The position numbers and the translations under genes are program-made. From sequence record NC_100129.1: a stretch of 50,984 bases of DNA. One strand, given 5' to 3'. The notes beneath the pieces were generated by a model. It worked only from the letters and a program-made list of their open reading frames with translations. It had not been told where the DNA came from and ran no database searches. Source of the DNA: a phage. Below are positions 1 to 50,984 of the stretch, one piece after another (within the stretch, counting starts at the first letter, position 1; every line of letters begins with the position of its first letter).

Positions 1-360
1 GTTTTTTGCGTTCGCAATACATTGAAAAACAGCGCGGAAACATGCCGCCCTGAAACGCGAACACGCGCGAACAAAATAAACAGCTTCTGTTTGCTGACGC
101 CACCAGGACGAGGCGAGAGGGCAACTACTTTCTATACACCCCGCCACACATGATTAATCACACACGCAATCAATCGAAAAACCTGGTAAACGCATATCAC
201 ACTAACCAATTTAACAGTTAAGCAACTTATTCCGATTATTCTTTGAGCGTGGAATAACTGGAATAATGCACCAGGCATGGAATAGCACTTTTTGTTAAAA
301 CCGAATCATTCTGATCGGGTACATTACACACATCGAAACAAACCGCTCAGGAGATAGCAA
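1..360. other. non-coding leader region upstream of early plus-strand genes
   Basis: No ORF; contains CGCGAAC repeats and first dyad motif copy. Confidence 0.55.
282..300 (+). promoter_or_regulatory. dyad motif copy (atAGCACTTTTTGTTAAAA)
   Basis: Exact copy of recurrent motif; TACATT 20 nt downstream; upstream of first early gene. Confidence 0.6.
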
Positions 361-4672: not shown

Positions 4673-6256
4673 ATGAATTTTTCATTTGAAACAAGTCAGT
4701 TATCACCGAAACAAATCATTGAAACCGCCGAATCTCAAGGTATTTCCCCTGTTCGTGTATCCATTCAGGCCAACGGATACCGCCAATCGTCAAGCTATTG
4801 GGGACAGGTGGAAGATATTAACGGCGGTAACGACCGCTACCCTGTCATTTCACTTGGGAATGATGTTGATGTAGTTGGTAAGCTGGCGCGCAATCTTGCG
4901 AGATCTGTTCAATTCCCTGAATCATCGGCCTACATGCACTTTATCGGATGTATTTCTGCCGCTATGCTTGGTCGATTCACAGTTGACTACCACGGAACCG
5001 ATCAGCCGACCGCGCTTTACGTTGTGACAAGCCAGCCTCCGTCGGCAGGTAAATCCGCGATTAACAGTCTGGCTATTGCGCCTATGGTTGCAGAAGTTGA
5101 GCGCATCAACGAGCAACGCAAGAAGGAACGGAAAAAGATACAGGCAAAACTTGCCGGACTACTAAAGGAGATGAAAAGCGAACGCTCCGGCGCAGATATG
5201 GAGATTCTATATCAAGAAAAAGAAGATCTGGAAGAAAAACTAAGCAAACTTTGCGATGTTGTTTTCCCTGTCTCCGACACCACACCAGAGGGATTAGCAA
5301 AGATAAATAACAGACAAGGAAACTTCGCGGTTATTTCTGATGAAGCAACCAGTATTAACAGTCTGCTTGGCCTGACTTACGCGAATAGCGAGCGCAAAAC
5401 TAACAGCGAACTTGTGTTAAAAGCATGGGATCACGGCCATGTTTCTATCGCCCGTTCTAATGCAGACAATAACATGAGTTTTTTTGCGCTTGGATGTATG
5501 AGTGTTATCGCCCAGGATGAAACTATTAATGGCATCATGGATGCAGGATCTCGTGGCATCGGTGTAAGCGAGCGTTTTCTACTGGTGCGCGAACAGCCGT
5601 TAATCGGTACGCGTGTATTTGTTGATGAGAATGGTGATTCAACTTACGAACCAGTAGACGGTGAATTGAAAGCGCAATACTTTCAGTTGGTGCATAACAT
5701 TATGAGCGAAATTAACGTTTCTCTGAAAGTTAGCCGTTCTGCAATGCGCGTGCTGAACATTGCACGCCAGGATATGGAACCGCATCTTGCCGACGGCGGA
5801 AAGTTTTCGCATACGATGCTACGCGGTGCGCTGGGTAAAATGGATAAGCAGGTGATCCGCATTGCTGCCGTTCTGCATGTGATACGCAATTGGTTTAATC
5901 CTGCTGGATACCCGCAAAAGTCTAGAGAGATTGACGTTGACACGATGCAAGAAGCCTTGCTGATGTTCCATGAATTGAGCAAAACGTATATCAGCGCGGC
6001 GAACGCGTCCGGCTATGCTGGTGATGATGCCGAGATGTCAAAACTGATTGAGTTAATCACCCGCCACGGTAAGGCAAATAAAGGCGTATTGAATGTCCGC
6101 GCTTTGTATGAGGCAGCACGCAAGGTAAAACCTTTCCTGGGGCAAGCTGGCGTGATGAAGCGCATAGAATCGCAACTTCTTCCGATGCTTGAGCAAAAAA
6201 ACTACGTTTGTGTTATTAATGGTGTTATTTTTGTGAATCCTGTGTTAATGGGGTAA
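4673..6256 (+). CDS. putative P-loop NTPase, replication-associated (527 aa)
   Basis: Deviant Walker A SQPPSAGKS and Walker B-like AVISDEA; large early gene; family assignment uncertain. Confidence 0.45.
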   Translation: MNFSFETSQLSPKQIIETAESQGISPVRVSIQANGYRQSSSYWGQVEDINGGNDRYPVISLGNDVDVVGKLARNLARSVQFPESSAYMHFIGCISAAMLGRFTVDYHGTDQPTALYVVTSQPPSAGKSAINSLAIAPMVAEVERINEQRKKERKKIQAKLAGLLKEMKSERSGADMEILYQEKEDLEEKLSKLCDVVFPVSDTTPEGLAKINNRQGNFAVISDEATSINSLLGLTYANSERKTNSELVLKAWDHGHVSIARSNADNNMSFFALGCMSVIAQDETINGIMDAGSRGIGVSERFLLVREQPLIGTRVFVDENGDSTYEPVDGELKAQYFQLVHNIMSEINVSLKVSRSAMRVLNIARQDMEPHLADGGKFSHTMLRGALGKMDKQVIRIAAVLHVIRNWFNPAGYPQKSREIDVDTMQEALLMFHELSKTYISAANASGYAGDDAEMSKLIELITRHGKANKGVLNVRALYEAARKVKPFLGQAGVMKRIESQLLPMLEQKNYVCVINGVIFVNPVLMG

Positions 6257-11622: not shown

Positions 11623-13648
11623 AATTAAACTCCTTCTTGTATATATTATCTTCGCCCTTGCTCGTCTTGCGGTGAGTTACCATCGACGGCGGCATGATGT
11701 GATTCGCATATTGCATGATTTTTCTTGCATTGCGATAGCTTGCCACCATGCCAGCAATACGGCGATCCTGTATATGCTTTAACGCGACTCTACGCCATTT
11801 ATCCCTGCAAATCTTGCTTTCTGATTCAGGGAAAAATATCTCTCTCGCCCTGAATGTGTCGATGCCGTCGGAAAGCTCATAATTGAAGATGATCCCTTTC
11901 TGATTTTTCGTCATGTCAACCGAGAAAGATTTTACCTGGAACCAGTCGTTTTTTGTGTAGTGCTTACCGCTTAACTTTTCGTTAGGGTCAATAAGCGACA
12001 CATCGCAATGCCTGCACACCCTGGCCGCAATATCATTCTTAGCACCACAGCCGTGATGGATCACCTTTCTGGTGCGCGGGTCTATCCGATCCTCACATAT
12101 CTTGTATTTGAAAAACCATTCGCATCTGTTTCCGTTTTCGTCTACGTGCATACAACGTCGAGCGTAATAGCTGTTTAACGTCTTGCATACAGGGCAAGGC
12201 TTCGGATCTTTTCCGTTTTTGAATCTCTTCTGATGCTGCGCCTGCTCCAGTATCGGATCGAAATAAAGCTCTCCTAACTCGTCCATCGTGCCGGAAAAGT
12301 CCAAAACAAGATGATCGTCTTTATGAAAGCCCTGCTCTTTGTGCCACTTTTTAAGCAGTCGCATACCGCGACCTAAAAGCTGAATCAACAAAGTTAGCGA
12401 TCCAATCTTACGCAGAATAACTGACGTATCCCAAAACGGCACGTTAACGCCAGTGGTTAGCGCCTGCACCTGGAAGATGTATTTTACTTTCCCCTCGTAT
12501 GCTTCTTTCAGCCATTCTTTACGCTGATTGTCGCCAGTCTTGCCAGTGATGATCCGGTAAGTCGTGCCAGGAGGCAACGCTGCCGCCGCCTCTTTACAAT
12601 GTCTTTCACCTGCACATGTCACCAATACGCCGTTACGGTTTTTACATATTTCGTGCACCTTCTCCATGATTCGCTTAGTCATAGTGGCTTCTTCATGGAT
12701 CTTCTGTTCCATTTTGCGAAGCGTTTTAGCGTCAAAATCTGCAACGCCGTCCTCGCTGGATGCCTCGAACTCTGACAGGTCATAACCGAGATCGCCAACG
12801 TCGCCAAAATTAGTTGGCACGACCGAACCGAATTTGATCAGGTAGTTGGTATCTATGTTCGTAACCTGTTCTCGCCAAAATCCTTTCTGTTTTTTATCTT
12901 CAACCAGGATTGGAACCACGCCGCGAAATTCCGATCCAGTCATGCCAAATATACGCAATTCGTGACCGTATTCCTTCCTGCAACGACGCATCATTTCCAT
13001 GATGATAACGGTGTACTGTGTCCGGCCTGTTCCTTCCATTGGCAAGCCATCTTCCCCAATCAGGAATTCATCACACTCATGGGCGTTCGTGATGTCGTAA
13101 TCTGGATTCTTTACTTTCTCGCCCTTTTTTGTCGTCATTTGAATTAGCGATTCGTCATTCTCTATCGCGTCGGCAAGGTCTTCCCAATCCACCTGATGAC
13201 ACTCGTCAATCCCGATAACGTGCGGCGCGTAGTCTCCAAGTGACTTAAACAGGCCGTTAACTACAGTTCCCTCAGAACCAACAACAATAGGAAAGTATGC
13301 GCTTTTGGTTTTCAGTCCAGCACAATAAATGGAATTTGGCACGCCGAGATTTGTGATCTCCTCTGAATCCTGATCCACAATTTCAGCCTGTCGCGCCAAT
13401 ACCATCATTTTCAAGCCCATTTTCCGGCATTGCGCCGCAACCATTGCAAACATCAATGTTTTGCCTGCTGATACTGACGCTTTAATAAAGAATGGATGCT
13501 GATAATTGCGCATACGCTTTGCGATCTCAGTGTATGCAACAACCTGGTAAGGATATGGCACAATATCGCCAACCGTGAAACGCTCCTGTATTTTTCGGAT
13601 CGTTTCTTCACCTAAAGCGGCTATCTGCTTTTCAATATTAGGAATCAT
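11609..13648 (-). CDS. superfamily 2 DNA helicase
   Basis: Walker A SAGKT, motif II IDECHQ (DEAH-like), C-terminal Cys cluster (CPVCK...C..C); 679 aa. Confidence 0.8.
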   Translation of the reverse strand: MIPNIEKQIAALGEETIRKIQERFTVGDIVPYPYQVVAYTEIAKRMRNYQHPFFIKASVSAGKTLMFAMVAAQCRKMGLKMMVLARQAEIVDQDSEEITNLGVPNSIYCAGLKTKSAYFPIVVGSEGTVVNGLFKSLGDYAPHVIGIDECHQVDWEDLADAIENDESLIQMTTKKGEKVKNPDYDITNAHECDEFLIGEDGLPMEGTGRTQYTVIIMEMMRRCRKEYGHELRIFGMTGSEFRGVVPILVEDKKQKGFWREQVTNIDTNYLIKFGSVVPTNFGDVGDLGYDLSEFEASSEDGVADFDAKTLRKMEQKIHEEATMTKRIMEKVHEICKNRNGVLVTCAGERHCKEAAAALPPGTTYRIITGKTGDNQRKEWLKEAYEGKVKYIFQVQALTTGVNVPFWDTSVILRKIGSLTLLIQLLGRGMRLLKKWHKEQGFHKDDHLVLDFSGTMDELGELYFDPILEQAQHQKRFKNGKDPKPCPVCKTLNSYYARRCMHVDENGNRCEWFFKYKICEDRIDPRTRKVIHHGCGAKNDIAARVCRHCDVSLIDPNEKLSGKHYTKNDWFQVKSFSVDMTKNQKGIIFNYELSDGIDTFRAREIFFPESESKICRDKWRRVALKHIQDRRIAGMVASYRNARKIMQYANHIMPPSMVTHRKTSKGEDNIYKKEFNYGND

Positions 13649-13703
13649 AACTGTCTCTTTTAATAAGCCATTAGGCGTGTATAATACACACGTTCAAAAG
13701 CTA

Positions 13704-13723
13704 TTTTTAACAAAAAGTGCTAT
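13704..13723 (-). promoter_or_regulatory. dyad motif copy (reverse orientation)
   Basis: In divergent region between helicase (minus) and HTH regulator (plus) genes. Confidence 0.55.
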
Positions 13724-13733
13724 GAGGTGCAAA

Positions 13734-14210
13734 ATGAAAGAAAAGCGAATCGCGGCCTATACTGGTGAGATTGACAAGCGAACATTGAACGGCAACAACG
13801 GAACGCGACGCGGCAAGGACAAGAAGCCACGCAAGCCGCGCACCGGATATTACATACTGAAAGAAGAAGTAAAAGCCGGACTGACCGCTCGCCTTGATAT
13901 TCTTCTGGAGTATTTCGGAGGTGTGGCAAATATGGCTCGTCGATTGGGAGTATCCCAGCAAACTGTAAATATGTGGCGCAAGCGCGGGATGATTTCAGCG
14001 ATGGGCGCACAACGCGTGCATAATGACTACAAATATAATGGCTGTAAAGGCTATCGCGCATCATTCTGTCGCCCGGATCTAAAATTCGACTCAAACGGTA
14101 AACCGCTTGTTACACGTTGCGAACGTCGTGAGATGTTGAGAGTGGTAACGATGCGCGATTATGAACCTGGCGGAATATTCTACAAAGAACCAAAAAGCAC
14201 AAATAGCTAA
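13734..14210 (+). CDS. HTH DNA-binding protein (Cro/YdaS-like), putative transcriptional regulator
   Basis: HTH GGVANMARRLGVSQQTVNMWRKRGMIS; basic N-terminal region. Confidence 0.6.
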   Translation: MKEKRIAAYTGEIDKRTLNGNNGTRRGKDKKPRKPRTGYYILKEEVKAGLTARLDILLEYFGGVANMARRLGVSQQTVNMWRKRGMISAMGAQRVHNDYKYNGCKGYRASFCRPDLKFDSNGKPLVTRCERREMLRVVTMRDYEPGGIFYKEPKSTNS

Positions 14211-14267
14211 AATTAATTGCCTGGCGTGGTTTATCATTGCCAGGCTTTTTCTTGTATGAGGTTTACA

Positions 14268-15179
14268 ATGCACTACGACAAAGACGAAGTTTTACCGCGT
14301 ATGCTGGGAATGTGGCAAACTGCATTAATGAAACTATGCAATGCGCCTCAATCTTTCTTTAATGGCAAGCATCAACCGTGCCTGTATTGTGGTGGCAAAG
14401 ACCGCGCTCGTTGGACTAACCAACTCGCAAAGAAAGGTGATGGCGGCAATATCTGCAACGTATGCGGTAACGATAGCGGGATCGGGTTGTTTATGCGATT
14501 GCGCGGGGAAAGCTATAGCGAAGCAATTAACACGCTGGGCGACTGGCTCAATCTCGTTCCGGTCGAAGTGGTGGCAAAGGCTAACAAGATAGCGTCGCGC
14601 TCGTCCGGCTACAATTTCGGGAAGCAGGCCAGCCATGAATGCTGTGAAAGAGTAATGGCAAAGACGCTTAAATTTGATCGCACTCCTTTAAGCGTATTTG
14701 AAGGAATCTACCCGCCTGATGATGGTCATTACGATTGCGGAGTTAAGGATGGGCGATACATTCACGCGCTTCCGTGCCGACTTGTTCACGAAGACGGCGT
14801 GGATGATGAGATGTGCAATATTCTCTTTATCACAGAGGAAGGCGATAAATCATTTCTGGCAAAGGATTACACGCGCGGATCGGTTGTTGTAACTGGTAGC
14901 ACAGATAAGACGATCTATTTGTGCACTGACTGGGTAAATGCTCAGCATGTGCACATTGCGACGGGGCAAGAAGTATGGACGTGCTACAATAACTACAATC
15001 TTGAGATGGTTGCCCACAGATACAAAGGAAATCGAAAGATGCGCGTCGTATGCCATAAAGATGATCGGGATGTAATAATCGCCGCCGATGAAAGAAACCT
15101 TGATGTTATGCTGCCGATTGGTGGAAACTTCAAAAATGGCATTGAGAAAAAACTTTACAAGCCTGAATCGCTTTTATAA
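14268..15179 (+). CDS. DNA primase with zinc-ribbon (P4-alpha-like Zn-binding domain)
   Basis: CLYCGGKDRARW...CNVCGNDSGIGLFM matches primase zinc-ribbon motif; GAGG RBS at start; terminator downstream. Confidence 0.65.
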   Translation: MHYDKDEVLPRMLGMWQTALMKLCNAPQSFFNGKHQPCLYCGGKDRARWTNQLAKKGDGGNICNVCGNDSGIGLFMRLRGESYSEAINTLGDWLNLVPVEVVAKANKIASRSSGYNFGKQASHECCERVMAKTLKFDRTPLSVFEGIYPPDDGHYDCGVKDGRYIHALPCRLVHEDGVDDEMCNILFITEEGDKSFLAKDYTRGSVVVTGSTDKTIYLCTDWVNAQHVHIATGQEVWTCYNNYNLEMVAHRYKGNRKMRVVCHKDDRDVIIAADERNLDVMLPIGGNFKNGIEKKLYKPESLL

Positions 15180-20562: not shown

Positions 20563-21073
20563 GATTAGCCCTCATTGGTTGGTATGCCTTCATTTTAGCT
20601 ATTTGATGCGTTTAGTCAATAGGTGATTTGTTTTTTCTGTTTTCTAAACGCTTCTTTTGGGCTTAAGAACAAAATCTGATTATAAGTGATTGAATATCAG
20701 GTTGTTATTTTTCTGTTCTCGCGTTCGCGTATCTGCTCAGCTTTATACATACATATGCAATACCCAGTGAGCATCTGTAATTACATAAATCAATACACTC
20801 ACCAAACATGCTACACACCACAACCCAATGAAACACAGAGAACAAATAAAAACAAATATAGATACATAGATAAATAAACTCTTTATTTTTTATGTATATA
20901 GATGATTTTACTGTCTATTGTTTGTCCAATTTGTGTTTAAGTTTTGCGCTAAAATTAAGGAGGTGTGAATTTGATAACAAGCGAGAACAGAAAAAACAAA
21001 TAGCACTTTTTGCTAAACTCGATGTTCAAGATCTTGTATAGTTGGAAACAACAACAACTAAGGAGATACAAAG
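20563..21073. other. large non-coding divergent control region (candidate ori/regulatory)
   Basis: ~510 bp without credible ORF; G-poor A/C-rich top strand; GTTCGCG repeat and AT-rich palindromic element ACATAGATAAATAAACTCTTTATTTT. Confidence 0.6.
21000..21017 (+). promoter_or_regulatory. dyad motif copy, variant (ATAGCACTTTTTGCTAAA)
   Basis: Upstream of lipoprotein cassette; TATAGT ~25 nt downstream. Confidence 0.55.
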
Positions 21074-43777: not shown

Positions 43778-44122
43778 CTATTCGCTTTCGTTAAATTTTC
43801 CATCAAGGATATTGCGGAGATTGTTTAGCGTCTTAACCTTCCAGCAATCCCATTCCGACGAACCAGGCTCAAGGTTTCTTGCGAATCCTGGCGCGTCAGT
43901 GCTCAACTCGTCGATAATGCAAGACACTTCATCAACGATAAGCTCCTTTATGTACTCTCGCTCGGCAAGATCGTCATTAATATTTTCCACCGACTCAAAA
44001 GCATGAATGACACCGCCTAAAACCTGTTGCTGCGCCTTTGCCTTGTCAAAATCATCATGAATGAAACGATGCTCTTTTTTGTTCTCGTTTGTTCCGATTT
44101 TGTAGTAGTGAATGTAAATCAT
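43778..44122 (-). CDS. hypothetical protein (114 aa)
   Basis: ORF in co-directional early cluster. Confidence 0.5.
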   Translation of the reverse strand: MIYIHYYKIGTNENKKEHRFIHDDFDKAKAQQQVLGGVIHAFESVENINDDLAEREYIKELIVDEVSCIIDELSTDAPGFARNLEPGSSEWDCWKVKTLNNLRNILDGKFNESE

Positions 44123-44427
44123 TTGTATTTCTCCGATACATGATTTGCAACTGATTGAACGTAATCAGCAAATGCCGACTCCATGCTTTCATTCTTTCGC
44201 TTCCAGTCCTCAATCTGCTGATCTCGGTAGCCATTCTCACCAAACCATGCTGCTGTTTCTGCCTGATCAGAACCAGCGGGAACAAATGCGTGTTCAAGCT
44301 GGTTAAAAACTTCACGCGCTACAGCCTCAGGAATTTTAACCGTTGCCTGAATACCGTTATCATCTCGCCAACCAAAGGCCGCTAACATAATTCGCGCTTG
44401 CTCTTCTGAAAGGTTGATCGTAATCAT
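44119..44427 (-). CDS. hypothetical protein (102 aa)
   Basis: ORF, overlapping start/stop with neighbours. Confidence 0.5.
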   Translation of the reverse strand: MITINLSEEQARIMLAAFGWRDDNGIQATVKIPEAVAREVFNQLEHAFVPAGSDQAETAAWFGENGYRDQQIEDWKRKNESMESAFADYVQSVANHVSEKYK

Positions 44428-50613: not shown

Positions 50614-50984
50614 GGTTAGCCTCCTGTTGACCAGTTGCCGCCCATTATAAGTGCCTTTTAATTAGTGTCAATGTTTATTTTGTCCGTATAACGTTCGCGT
50701 CCTGTTCGCGTTGCCGACGTTTTGAGATAATCGCTACATAACCACATGATTTGCAATAAGTTTTTGCCGCTTGTTTTCTTTCTGTTCGCGCTGTTAGCGT
50801 AATATCGCAATAAAAGTATATATACATACTCATTCCACCAGGCGCGCAACTATCCATATATATACCAACAAAGCGACACCGCAACCATCACATACCACAC
50901 TAACAACGCTAACAAGAAATAACACATAAATATATACATAAATAAATATTCTTTATTTTCAATGTATTATAAGGGATTTATTTT
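50614..50984. other. large non-coding control region at window end (continues at 1-360 if circular/permuted)
   Basis: Three GTTCGCG repeats (50693, 50704, 50784); inverted copies at 56-62 and 66-72; A/C-rich tract and second copy of AT-rich element near 50935. Confidence 0.6.

Follow-up and report, generated by a model that had tools for sequence, protein, structure and literature searches.

The question raised by this locus is whether the two ends of a phage genome record form one control region, and what function may be served by the copies of GTTCGCG and of its reverse complement CGCGAAC that are found there. The sequence analysed, called the window below, is the whole record NC_100129.1 (50,984 nt), which belongs to a T1-like coliphage, a siphophage of the genus Warwickvirus (Drexlerviridae, Tempevirinae). 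T1 is one of the classical T phages. The records closest to the window are MatMar, WaterSpirit, BEBK14 and BabyEgg, and Escherichia phage Jahat_MG145 encodes a protein with 100% identity to one window protein. Judged by gene order, the window runs as the reverse complement relative to the reference records of T1 and TLS. The minus-strand unit from 50613, which leads from small early genes to terS (42606), terL, the portal and the tail genes, corresponds to the plus-strand unit of T1 from position 539.

In the records of MatMar, WaterSpirit, BEBK14 and BabyEgg, the first base of the window follows directly upon the last. The two ends are also contiguous in the sister clade of tuinn, EC125, SECphi27, tunus and atuna, and they are joined in six further metagenome or read-archive assemblies (28-51 kb). 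Because the ends are contiguous in relatives, 50614..50984 and 1..360 are one intergenic region of 731 bp, called the junction below. An earlier note on this DNA had proposed that the ends join as one control region between divergent units, provided that they are contiguous; contiguity was found in the relatives, and the proposal is confirmed by at least 15 related assemblies overall. According to the literature, T1-like phages are packaged by the headful mechanism from a pac site, their ends are not fixed, and the point at which their records are opened is conventional. In the T1 and TLS records this point lies elsewhere in the homologous intergenic region, and the record boundary of NC_100129.1 cuts through an element that looks functional. 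In L031 (ENA vOTU_00998), an otherwise very similar metagenomic relative, the corresponding region (382-1500) measures 1119 bp versus about 731 bp; about 390 bp are inserted in its control region, and an ORF of 100 aa is called at 1119-1421. Small ORFs are annotated in the junction of MatMar and WaterSpirit. We took them as over-prediction: they are unannotated in BEBK14 and in the tuinn clade, and the DNA is strongly strand-skewed.

The divergent arrangement of the junction is real. A leftward sigma-70 promoter, TTGACA-16-TATAAT (50671 to 50644, minus strand), matches the consensus at 12 of 12 positions, and both of its hexamers are conserved in the sister clade. It is followed by the first leftward gene (DUF7174, 50613 to 50152, minus strand). 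At the other side, a copy of the T1-family DR element (ATAGCACTTTTTGTTAAA, 282..299, plus strand) lies upstream of the plus-strand gene at 361. The first repeats met from the left are the promoter-proximal pair GTTCGCG-N4-GTTCGCG (50693..50710, plus strand, 11-bp period), 22-39 bp upstream of the −35 hexamer. This pair sits in a segment of about 28 bp that is absent from the tuinn clade, and one of its copies is changed in the last G in BabyEgg and likewise in the relative L033. The left inner tandem pair, CTGTTCGCG CTGTTAGCG (50782..50799, plus strand, 9-bp period), points towards the core; it is part of an inverted-repeat pair (I10), 259 nt from its partner. A TATATACATAC box and then an A+C-rich stretch of about 100 nt come next (50816..50946, plus strand), with almost no G or T on the plus strand. 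The AT-rich, least stable DNA (50891..50984), which resembles an unwinding element, contains the conserved core ATAAATAAATATTCTTTATTTTCAATGTATTATA (50938-50971), and the window boundary cuts through it. This core is conserved in distant Drexlerviridae (H65, H87, H89 and H90). Beyond the boundary lie a degenerate copy GTTCGCa (10..16, plus strand) and the right tandem pair CGCGAACA-N2-CGCGAACA (56..73, minus strand, 10-bp period), which reads TGTTCGCG on the minus strand and points towards the core. GGAATA repeats follow at 228-290. That the heptamer copies are direct at one flank and inverted at the opposite flank, as described before, is supported. We call the part from 50732..50984 and 1..95 module A.

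Some other features of the junction were considered and rejected. A central promoter in the core had a perfect TATAAT on the minus strand (50971 to 50966) without an acceptable −35; it was unreported by the promoter scan and is not conserved in the second module described below (module B). A perfect 13-bp inverted repeat, TTTTCAATGTATT / AATACATTGAAAA, lies across the boundary (I4; 50956-50968 / 16-28, with 31 nt between the arms). As a functional feature it was set aside: its left arm is in the widely conserved core, and its right arm is clade-specific and not conserved in tuinn, in the W011D-like contig L027 and in module B. A non-coding RNA reading was dropped because Rfam gave no match at the gathering score for the window and none at E <= 1 for the contiguous junction. 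Boxes of the host factors DnaA, IHF, LexA, NrdR, PurR, ArcA and TorR, compared by eye, gave no convincing or conserved match.

We counted the heptamer in the whole genome. The positions quoted in the earlier note are all correct (GTTCGCG on the plus strand at 50693, 50704, 50784 and 20723; CGCGAAC at 56 and 66), and five more copies of GTTCGCG/CGCGAAC, absent from that note, lie in coding DNA (5588, 11368, 23291, 40839 and 42686). A frequency matching that of shuffled sequences had been named there as a result that would speak against an array, and the genome-wide frequency is formally such a result, being at chance (11 copies versus 8.84 ± 3.15 in shuffles). The distribution of the copies is another matter. 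Five of the 11 are inside the 731-bp junction, and a scan statistic gives a probability of about 1 × 10−4 for 5 or more of 11 randomly placed sites sharing any one 731-bp segment. When the junction was shuffled with dinucleotides preserved, 14 of 5000 trials had any GC-rich canonical 7-mer at 5 copies, and no other 731-bp segment of the genome holds a GC-rich 7-mer at 5 copies. The heptamer is thus enriched locally, by clustering in the junction above chance, and not genome-wide. A locally enriched cluster of short repeats, as is expected of an iteron origin, is present.

The copy at 20723 is not incidental, as it had seemed when it was listed as a single copy in the other large non-coding region, and marks a second, paralogous copy of the whole module. 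Module B (20660..21014, plus strand) is colinear with the junction module over about 350 bp, in the same orientation. The local alignment scored 139, compared with 31 ± 4.8 for shuffles (maximum 51) and 61 for the reverse complement, and inspection of the alignment by eye showed that modules A and B are roughly 60-65% alike. In module B, the left pair CTGTTCTCG CGTTCGCG (20713-20729) is followed by a TATACATAC box and an A+C-rich stretch, then by the AT-rich core ATAGATAAATAAACTCTTTATTTTTTATGTATATAG (about 20843-20944) and by the right pair GATAACA/CGAGAACA (20973-20989). A DR element (21000-21017) and then a plus-strand gene come after the module. Conserved counterparts of module B, with 68-75% identity, are present in 155 phage records. 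In an alignment of IMG/VR relatives, T1 and TLS, the pattern TGTTC-N4-TGTTC on the left and GA(G/T)AACA...G(G/A)AACAAAAG on the right is kept by most relatives including TLS, and T1 carries its own variants at the repeat positions. TLS and T1 have the corresponding second module, and both copies are syntenic in T1, TLS and Warwickvirus. Two leftward sigma-70-like promoters were seen upstream of the exonuclease VIII gene, ATAACA-18-TATAAT (20679-20708) and TTGACT-16-TAAAAT (20592-20619), of which the latter is conserved in relatives including T1. The left pair of module B abuts the −35 of the candidate at 20708 to 20679, which matches the promoter consensus at 10 of 12 positions.

The DNA enclosed by the repeats is extreme in its physical properties. 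Nearest-neighbour duplex energies were calculated for 60-bp segments, and the least stable in the genome are at 50926 (−59.5 kcal/mol) and then 20843 (−59.7), with the third rank at −66.0 and a genome mean of −82.7 (sd 5.2). The cores of the two modules are the two least stable 60- and 100-bp segments of the genome, as is expected of AT-rich DNA that unwinds. The least stable 100-bp segments of T1 (203 and 29997) and of TLS (28810 and 194) are again, genome-wide, at the two homologous loci. The strongest asymmetry of A+C over G+T in 100-bp segments was found at 20782 and 50847, tied at +56 (sd 11.9; next value 42). GC skew was rejected as an origin marker, since gene orientation accounts just as well for the cumulative minimum that it has at the junction.

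We compared the repeats across relatives. The close clade shows 95-98% identity over the junction region, and among 11 relatives of this clade three motif columns are variable, all in the 3' GCG part and never in GTTC. In these 11 genomes, where substitutions are few, the variability of the motif columns was not significantly below that of the remaining columns (3 of 35 versus 79 of 696), and the test of purifying selection among them was discarded as uninformative because of too few substitutions. The sister Warwickvirus (tuinn) clade, at about 70% identity, has no copy of the exact heptamer, which is specific to the clade of the window, and the analysis was therefore moved to the TGTTC core. 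GTTCGCG, which had been treated as the repeat, is thus not the conserved unit; the TGTTC core in tandem pairs is. The pentamer TGTTC/GAACA is short and occurs 123 times in the genome (2.4 per kb). Tandem pairs of the form TGTTC-N4-6-GTT[CA] number 8 in the genome, and 4 of these 8 are exactly the four flanks of the two modules.

In tuinn, the left inner site is TGTTCACG/CTGTTAACG and the right site is CGGTAACA/GGTGAACA. In TLS (genus Tlsvirus), two GTTCACG copies form the left pair, and GTTCACG and GTTCTCG (listed as CGTGAACA, twice) stand on the right, about 270 bp away and in the opposite orientation. In the L027 contig, the left site consists of two CTGTTAACG copies and the right site of TGTGAACA/CATGAACA, and more distant contigs have TGTTTC and TTGCGGAA variants. 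The layout positions are +80, +91, +171, +180 / −427, −437 in the window; +163, +171 / −440, −450 in TLS; +146, +155 / −402 in tuinn; and +145, +154 / −410, −420 in L027. T1, from another subfamily, has its own 8-mer, TGTTAATC, and places 5 of its 6 genome copies within 510 bp around an AT-rich unstable core, in an arrangement that differs in detail from the layout in the window. In the sequences compared, the conserved feature is a TGTTC/TGTTA core in tandem pairs 9-11 bp apart, which point inward from both sides of a core of about 250 bp. Core and layout are kept in three genera. On the same alignments, the 3' half of each repeat is lineage-specific, and the layout is kept while the sequence drifts.

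The replication proteins of the phage bear on the function of these modules. The plus-strand gene at 14217..15179 encodes a primase that is homologous to the N-terminal primase domain of P4 alpha (BLASTP versus alpha aa 13-263, E = 1 × 10−11; Pfam Zn_Ribbon_Prim), and the T1 primase carries the same annotation. A primase of the DnaG/alpha type, as P4 has, is thus encoded in the window at 14217-15179. The gene at 4673..6256 (plus strand) encodes a DUF3987 helicase that is common to T1-like phages, for which the AF2 model (pLDDT 88) predicts an MCM-like AAA+ fold with a C-terminal winged helix. Its best Foldseek matches are MCM2-7 subunits (E = 1 × 10−5, with a TM of only about 0.36), and the solved folds nearest to it are MCM subunits of eukaryotes and archaea. 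The C-terminal domain modelled alone gave a generic winged helix with a best Foldseek E of 0.025, and PDB 1KA8 was not in its top 50 matches. Directly upstream of the primase, 13575..14210 (plus strand) encodes a helix-turn-helix (HTH) protein that is the homologue of the T1 ST23 "transcriptional regulator". It is 55-59% identical to T1 ST23 and TLS gp57 and has weak YdaS/P22_Cro HTH matches below the Pfam cut-offs. The predicted fold makes the DUF3987 helicase a candidate initiator that may bind the repeats, and the HTH protein may be a second candidate binder. When the helicase winged helix and the HTH protein were compared with the repeat variant, all proteins were found to diverge in parallel, over three lineages only.

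The repeats themselves resemble those of P4. The P4 record (NC_001609) lists 16 "ori type 1 repeats" TGTTCACC, with the variants TGTTCACA, TATTCACC and TCTTCACC, which form tandem arrays of 9-11 bp in both orientations, beside AT-rich DNA, at two loci (ori and crr). The window repeats, TGTTCGCG/TGTTAGCG/TGTTCTCG, share with them the TGTTC(N)C core, the C at position 7 and the spacing. The left inner pair of module A and the P4 crr pair CTGTTCACA CTGTTCACC share one 9-bp register, and the exact P4 octamer was found only in the tuinn clade among the compared phages. Like P4 with ori and crr, the phage has two cis elements with the same repeats in one genome. However, the 3' half of the repeat is GCG or ACG in the phages and ACC in P4; there are 4-7 copies per locus in the phages and 6-10 in P4; and the phage layout consists of inward-facing pairs about 250 bp apart. 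The phage primase and helicase are also separate proteins, unlike in P4, and the helicase is of the MCM-like DUF3987 kind and not of the D5/SF3 type. Origin recognition by P4 alpha is mediated by a winged helix at its C terminus (Pfam Pox_D5, PDB 1KA8). This origin-binding domain was not found in the window by tblastn, Pfam, PDB sequence search or Foldseek, and tblastn of P4 alpha versus the window matched the primase part only; the Pfam comparison, made with the candidate proteins, gave no Pox_D5 match.

The reading that we prefer is that the heptamers are initiator-binding repeats, or iterons, of an origin-like element, to which we give an even chance; both the binding and the origin function are inferred. 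It fits better than the alternatives because the repeats drift in a lineage-specific way within a conserved inward layout, the most meltable and strand-skewed DNA is enclosed, the module is duplicated, and P4-like repeats occur together with a P4-type primase. The earlier note had left the choice between an operator and an iteron array. The iteron alternative is favoured by the evidence, and the operator is still a rival, as one repeat pair per module adjoins the leftward promoter. If the element is an origin, a phage-encoded DNA-binding protein would occupy the repeat pairs and bend or bridge the two flanks, which would open the AT-rich core. The opened core would then let the phage helicase and the P4-alpha-type primase start DNA synthesis. 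Candidates for the binder are the MCM-like DUF3987 helicase, which would act via its winged helix, and the HTH protein whose gene directly precedes that of the primase. The flanking divergent promoters would probably assist, and the extra pair at 50693/50704 may couple occupancy to the leftward promoter. It counts against an origin that T1-like phages could rely largely on recombination-dependent replication, and that, between divergent promoters, a purely transcriptional role fits the position of the module equally well.

Such a role would be that of an operator or enhancer, in which the TGTTC pairs are the target of either a phage early regulator, e.g., the ST23-like HTH protein, or a host factor; the bound protein would loop the AT-rich DNA and switch the divergent promoters, with no part in replication. 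Each module does have a leftward sigma-70 promoter on one side and a rightward DR element on the other, one pair per module is just upstream of the leftward −35 (50693/50704 in module A, the left pair in module B), and the HTH protein is annotated as a transcriptional regulator in T1 and TLS. We regard this explanation as possible but doubtful. Most copies, among them those of the left and right inner pairs of module A, have no promoter core within 100 bp, and the other 19 DR elements have no adjacent TGTTC pairs. For HTH dimers of the Cro type, tandem direct repeats 9-11 bp apart are unusual targets, which also counts against an operator. It leaves unexplained, moreover, the lowest stability and the strongest strand skew of the enclosed DNA in three genera. 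A different use of the intergenic position would be packaging, with the small terminase binding repeats on both sides of the first cut and the window boundary being that cut. The boundary falls between the two repeat sets, the literature places the pac of T1 and relatives in this intergenic region, the T1 record is opened there, and ATATA repeats found here were once proposed as the T1 pac motif. However, the whole module is duplicated at 20.7 kb, and a site that initiates a packaging series should be unique. Since the "ATATA" region is duplicated, it is probably not the packaging signal itself. The records of T1 and TLS start within this intergenic region as well, but at points that lie outside the core, roughly 150-250 bp to its right in window orientation (an estimate by feature alignment), and that adjoin other repeats (GGAATA in T1, AGATTT in TLS). 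The pac position of TLS was assigned by restriction mapping and by resemblance to the P22 pac (PMC11447400). Ends that are not fixed and records that are opened by convention also count against a pac site, which we consider very unlikely.

It may also be that the repeats have no specific function, the heptamer cluster having arisen incidentally when AT-rich DNA of the promoter region was locally duplicated, or received an insertion, in a single clade, and the short TGTTC pattern being over-read. The genome count of the heptamer at chance, the two copies in the clade-specific segment of about 28 bp, the mutated copies in close relatives and the common occurrence of TGTTC/GAACA all agree with this. 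What it does not account for is that the same pair positions and inward orientation are shared by tuinn, L027, TLS and the window, and by the two modules, that half of the tandem TGTTC pairs are module flanks, and that T1 puts most copies of its own 8-mer here; we hold it to be unlikely. Alternatively, the module could be the relic of a mobile element, a unit of about 350 bp with imperfect terminal inverted repeats (CTGTTCGCGCTGTTAGCG ... CGCGAACACGCGCGAACA) that was copied to two places, as two same-orientation copies bounded by inverted repeats would suggest. We find this highly improbable: the two copies are syntenic in T1, TLS and Warwickvirus and only roughly 60-65% alike, and neither further copies nor a target-site duplication were seen. 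Chance or local duplication and a mobile relic are both disfavoured because synteny and layout are conserved across genera.

The origin-like element can be compared with other known systems. In SaPI origins, the Rep helicase melts an AT-rich region that has a set of short iterons on either side. The phage modules likewise have two short-repeat sets that bracket an AT-rich meltable segment, and the putative binder would be a helicase with a specificity domain, encoded together with a separate primase. However, sequences and hosts are unrelated, and the SaPI origin lies directly after rep, whereas the phage modules are 4-16 kb from the replication genes and duplicated. The lambda origin has four direct-repeat iterons of 18-19 bp inside gene O. 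Like lambda ori and iteron plasmids, the phage has short repeated sites, at which binding is putative, beside strand-asymmetric AT-rich DNA with transcription nearby. Unlike those of lambda, its sites are 7-9 bp long, paired, inverted across the core and intergenic. In the P1 pac, 4 + 3 hexamers flank the cut, and SPP1 has pacL and pacR. The two short-repeat clusters around a central region are similar to these, and the pac of the T1 family is mapped to the same intergenic region; the differences are that the phage module occurs twice in the genome and that the recorded T1 and TLS pac ends lie outside it.

The TLS re-annotation of 2024 reported no origin-type repeats anywhere in the genome (PMC11447400), the origin was not found in the SU57 paper of 2020, and it is not mentioned in a T1-like genome paper of 2026. 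Nothing further on origins or iterons in Drexlerviridae was found in a literature search. Within the limits of the library surveyed, the element is thus a candidate origin of a known general kind that is undescribed. Our results give two precise candidate origins per genome, with defined repeat pairs and an unwinding core, which makes an old open point of T1 biology testable. The candidates are conserved across at least two subfamilies (Tunavirinae and Tempevirinae), and the analysis points to an evolutionary link with P4-type replication modules.

A bolder reading is that modules A and B form a bipartite origin like P4 ori/crr. It would be served by a "split alpha" system with a separate primase, an MCM-like winged-helix helicase and possibly the HTH protein as an adaptor; the initiator would bridge sites 20-30 kb apart, and its occupancy would gate the divergent early promoters. 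We think that this is rather unlikely. If it were true, the replication and transcription programme of T1-like phages would be controlled from two shared nodes, with the repeat sequence co-evolving with the initiator.

Other repeats are found around the modules. The DR element, ATAGCACNNNTTGNTAAA, has 21 copies in the window versus 0.56 expected, mostly co-oriented with genes (e.g., 282, 2001, 3925, 6769, 21000, 44726 and 49873). It is the 21-nt repeat described for TLS (PMC11447400). This known repeated non-coding element of the T1 family, aaATAGCACnnnTTGnTAAAA, has one copy after each module, but it differs from the TGTTC array in sequence and in its dispersed, gene-co-oriented copies, and it lies outside the array. 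Two DR copies (32027 and 35780) are on the plus strand inside the minus-strand structural operon.

The GGAATA/TATTCC repeats at 228-290 (TTATTCCGATTATTC ... GGAATAACTGGAATAATG ... GGAATAGC) are also found in T1, directly beside position 1, which is the conventional pac end, and are absent from the tuinn clade. They could be a terminase recognition site. The motif CACCAGG, which contains the Dcm site CCAGG, has 4 copies in the genome, 3 of them in the junction region (50836, 101 and 269).

A third cluster of TGTTC pairs, again in tandem, is found in coding DNA at 44078-44310, with TGTTCTCGTTTGTTC (plus strand, 44080), TGTTCCCGCTGGTTC (minus strand, 44270) and TGTTCAAGCTGGTTA (plus strand, 44291). 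The pairs at 44080 and 44270 face inward about 190 bp apart, like those of the modules; the intervening DNA is ordinary coding sequence and not AT-rich. Among the early genes, the protein encoded at 2025-2273 matches Pfam PF25180 "Phage antiviral trigger protein Gp54" with E = 4 × 10−38.
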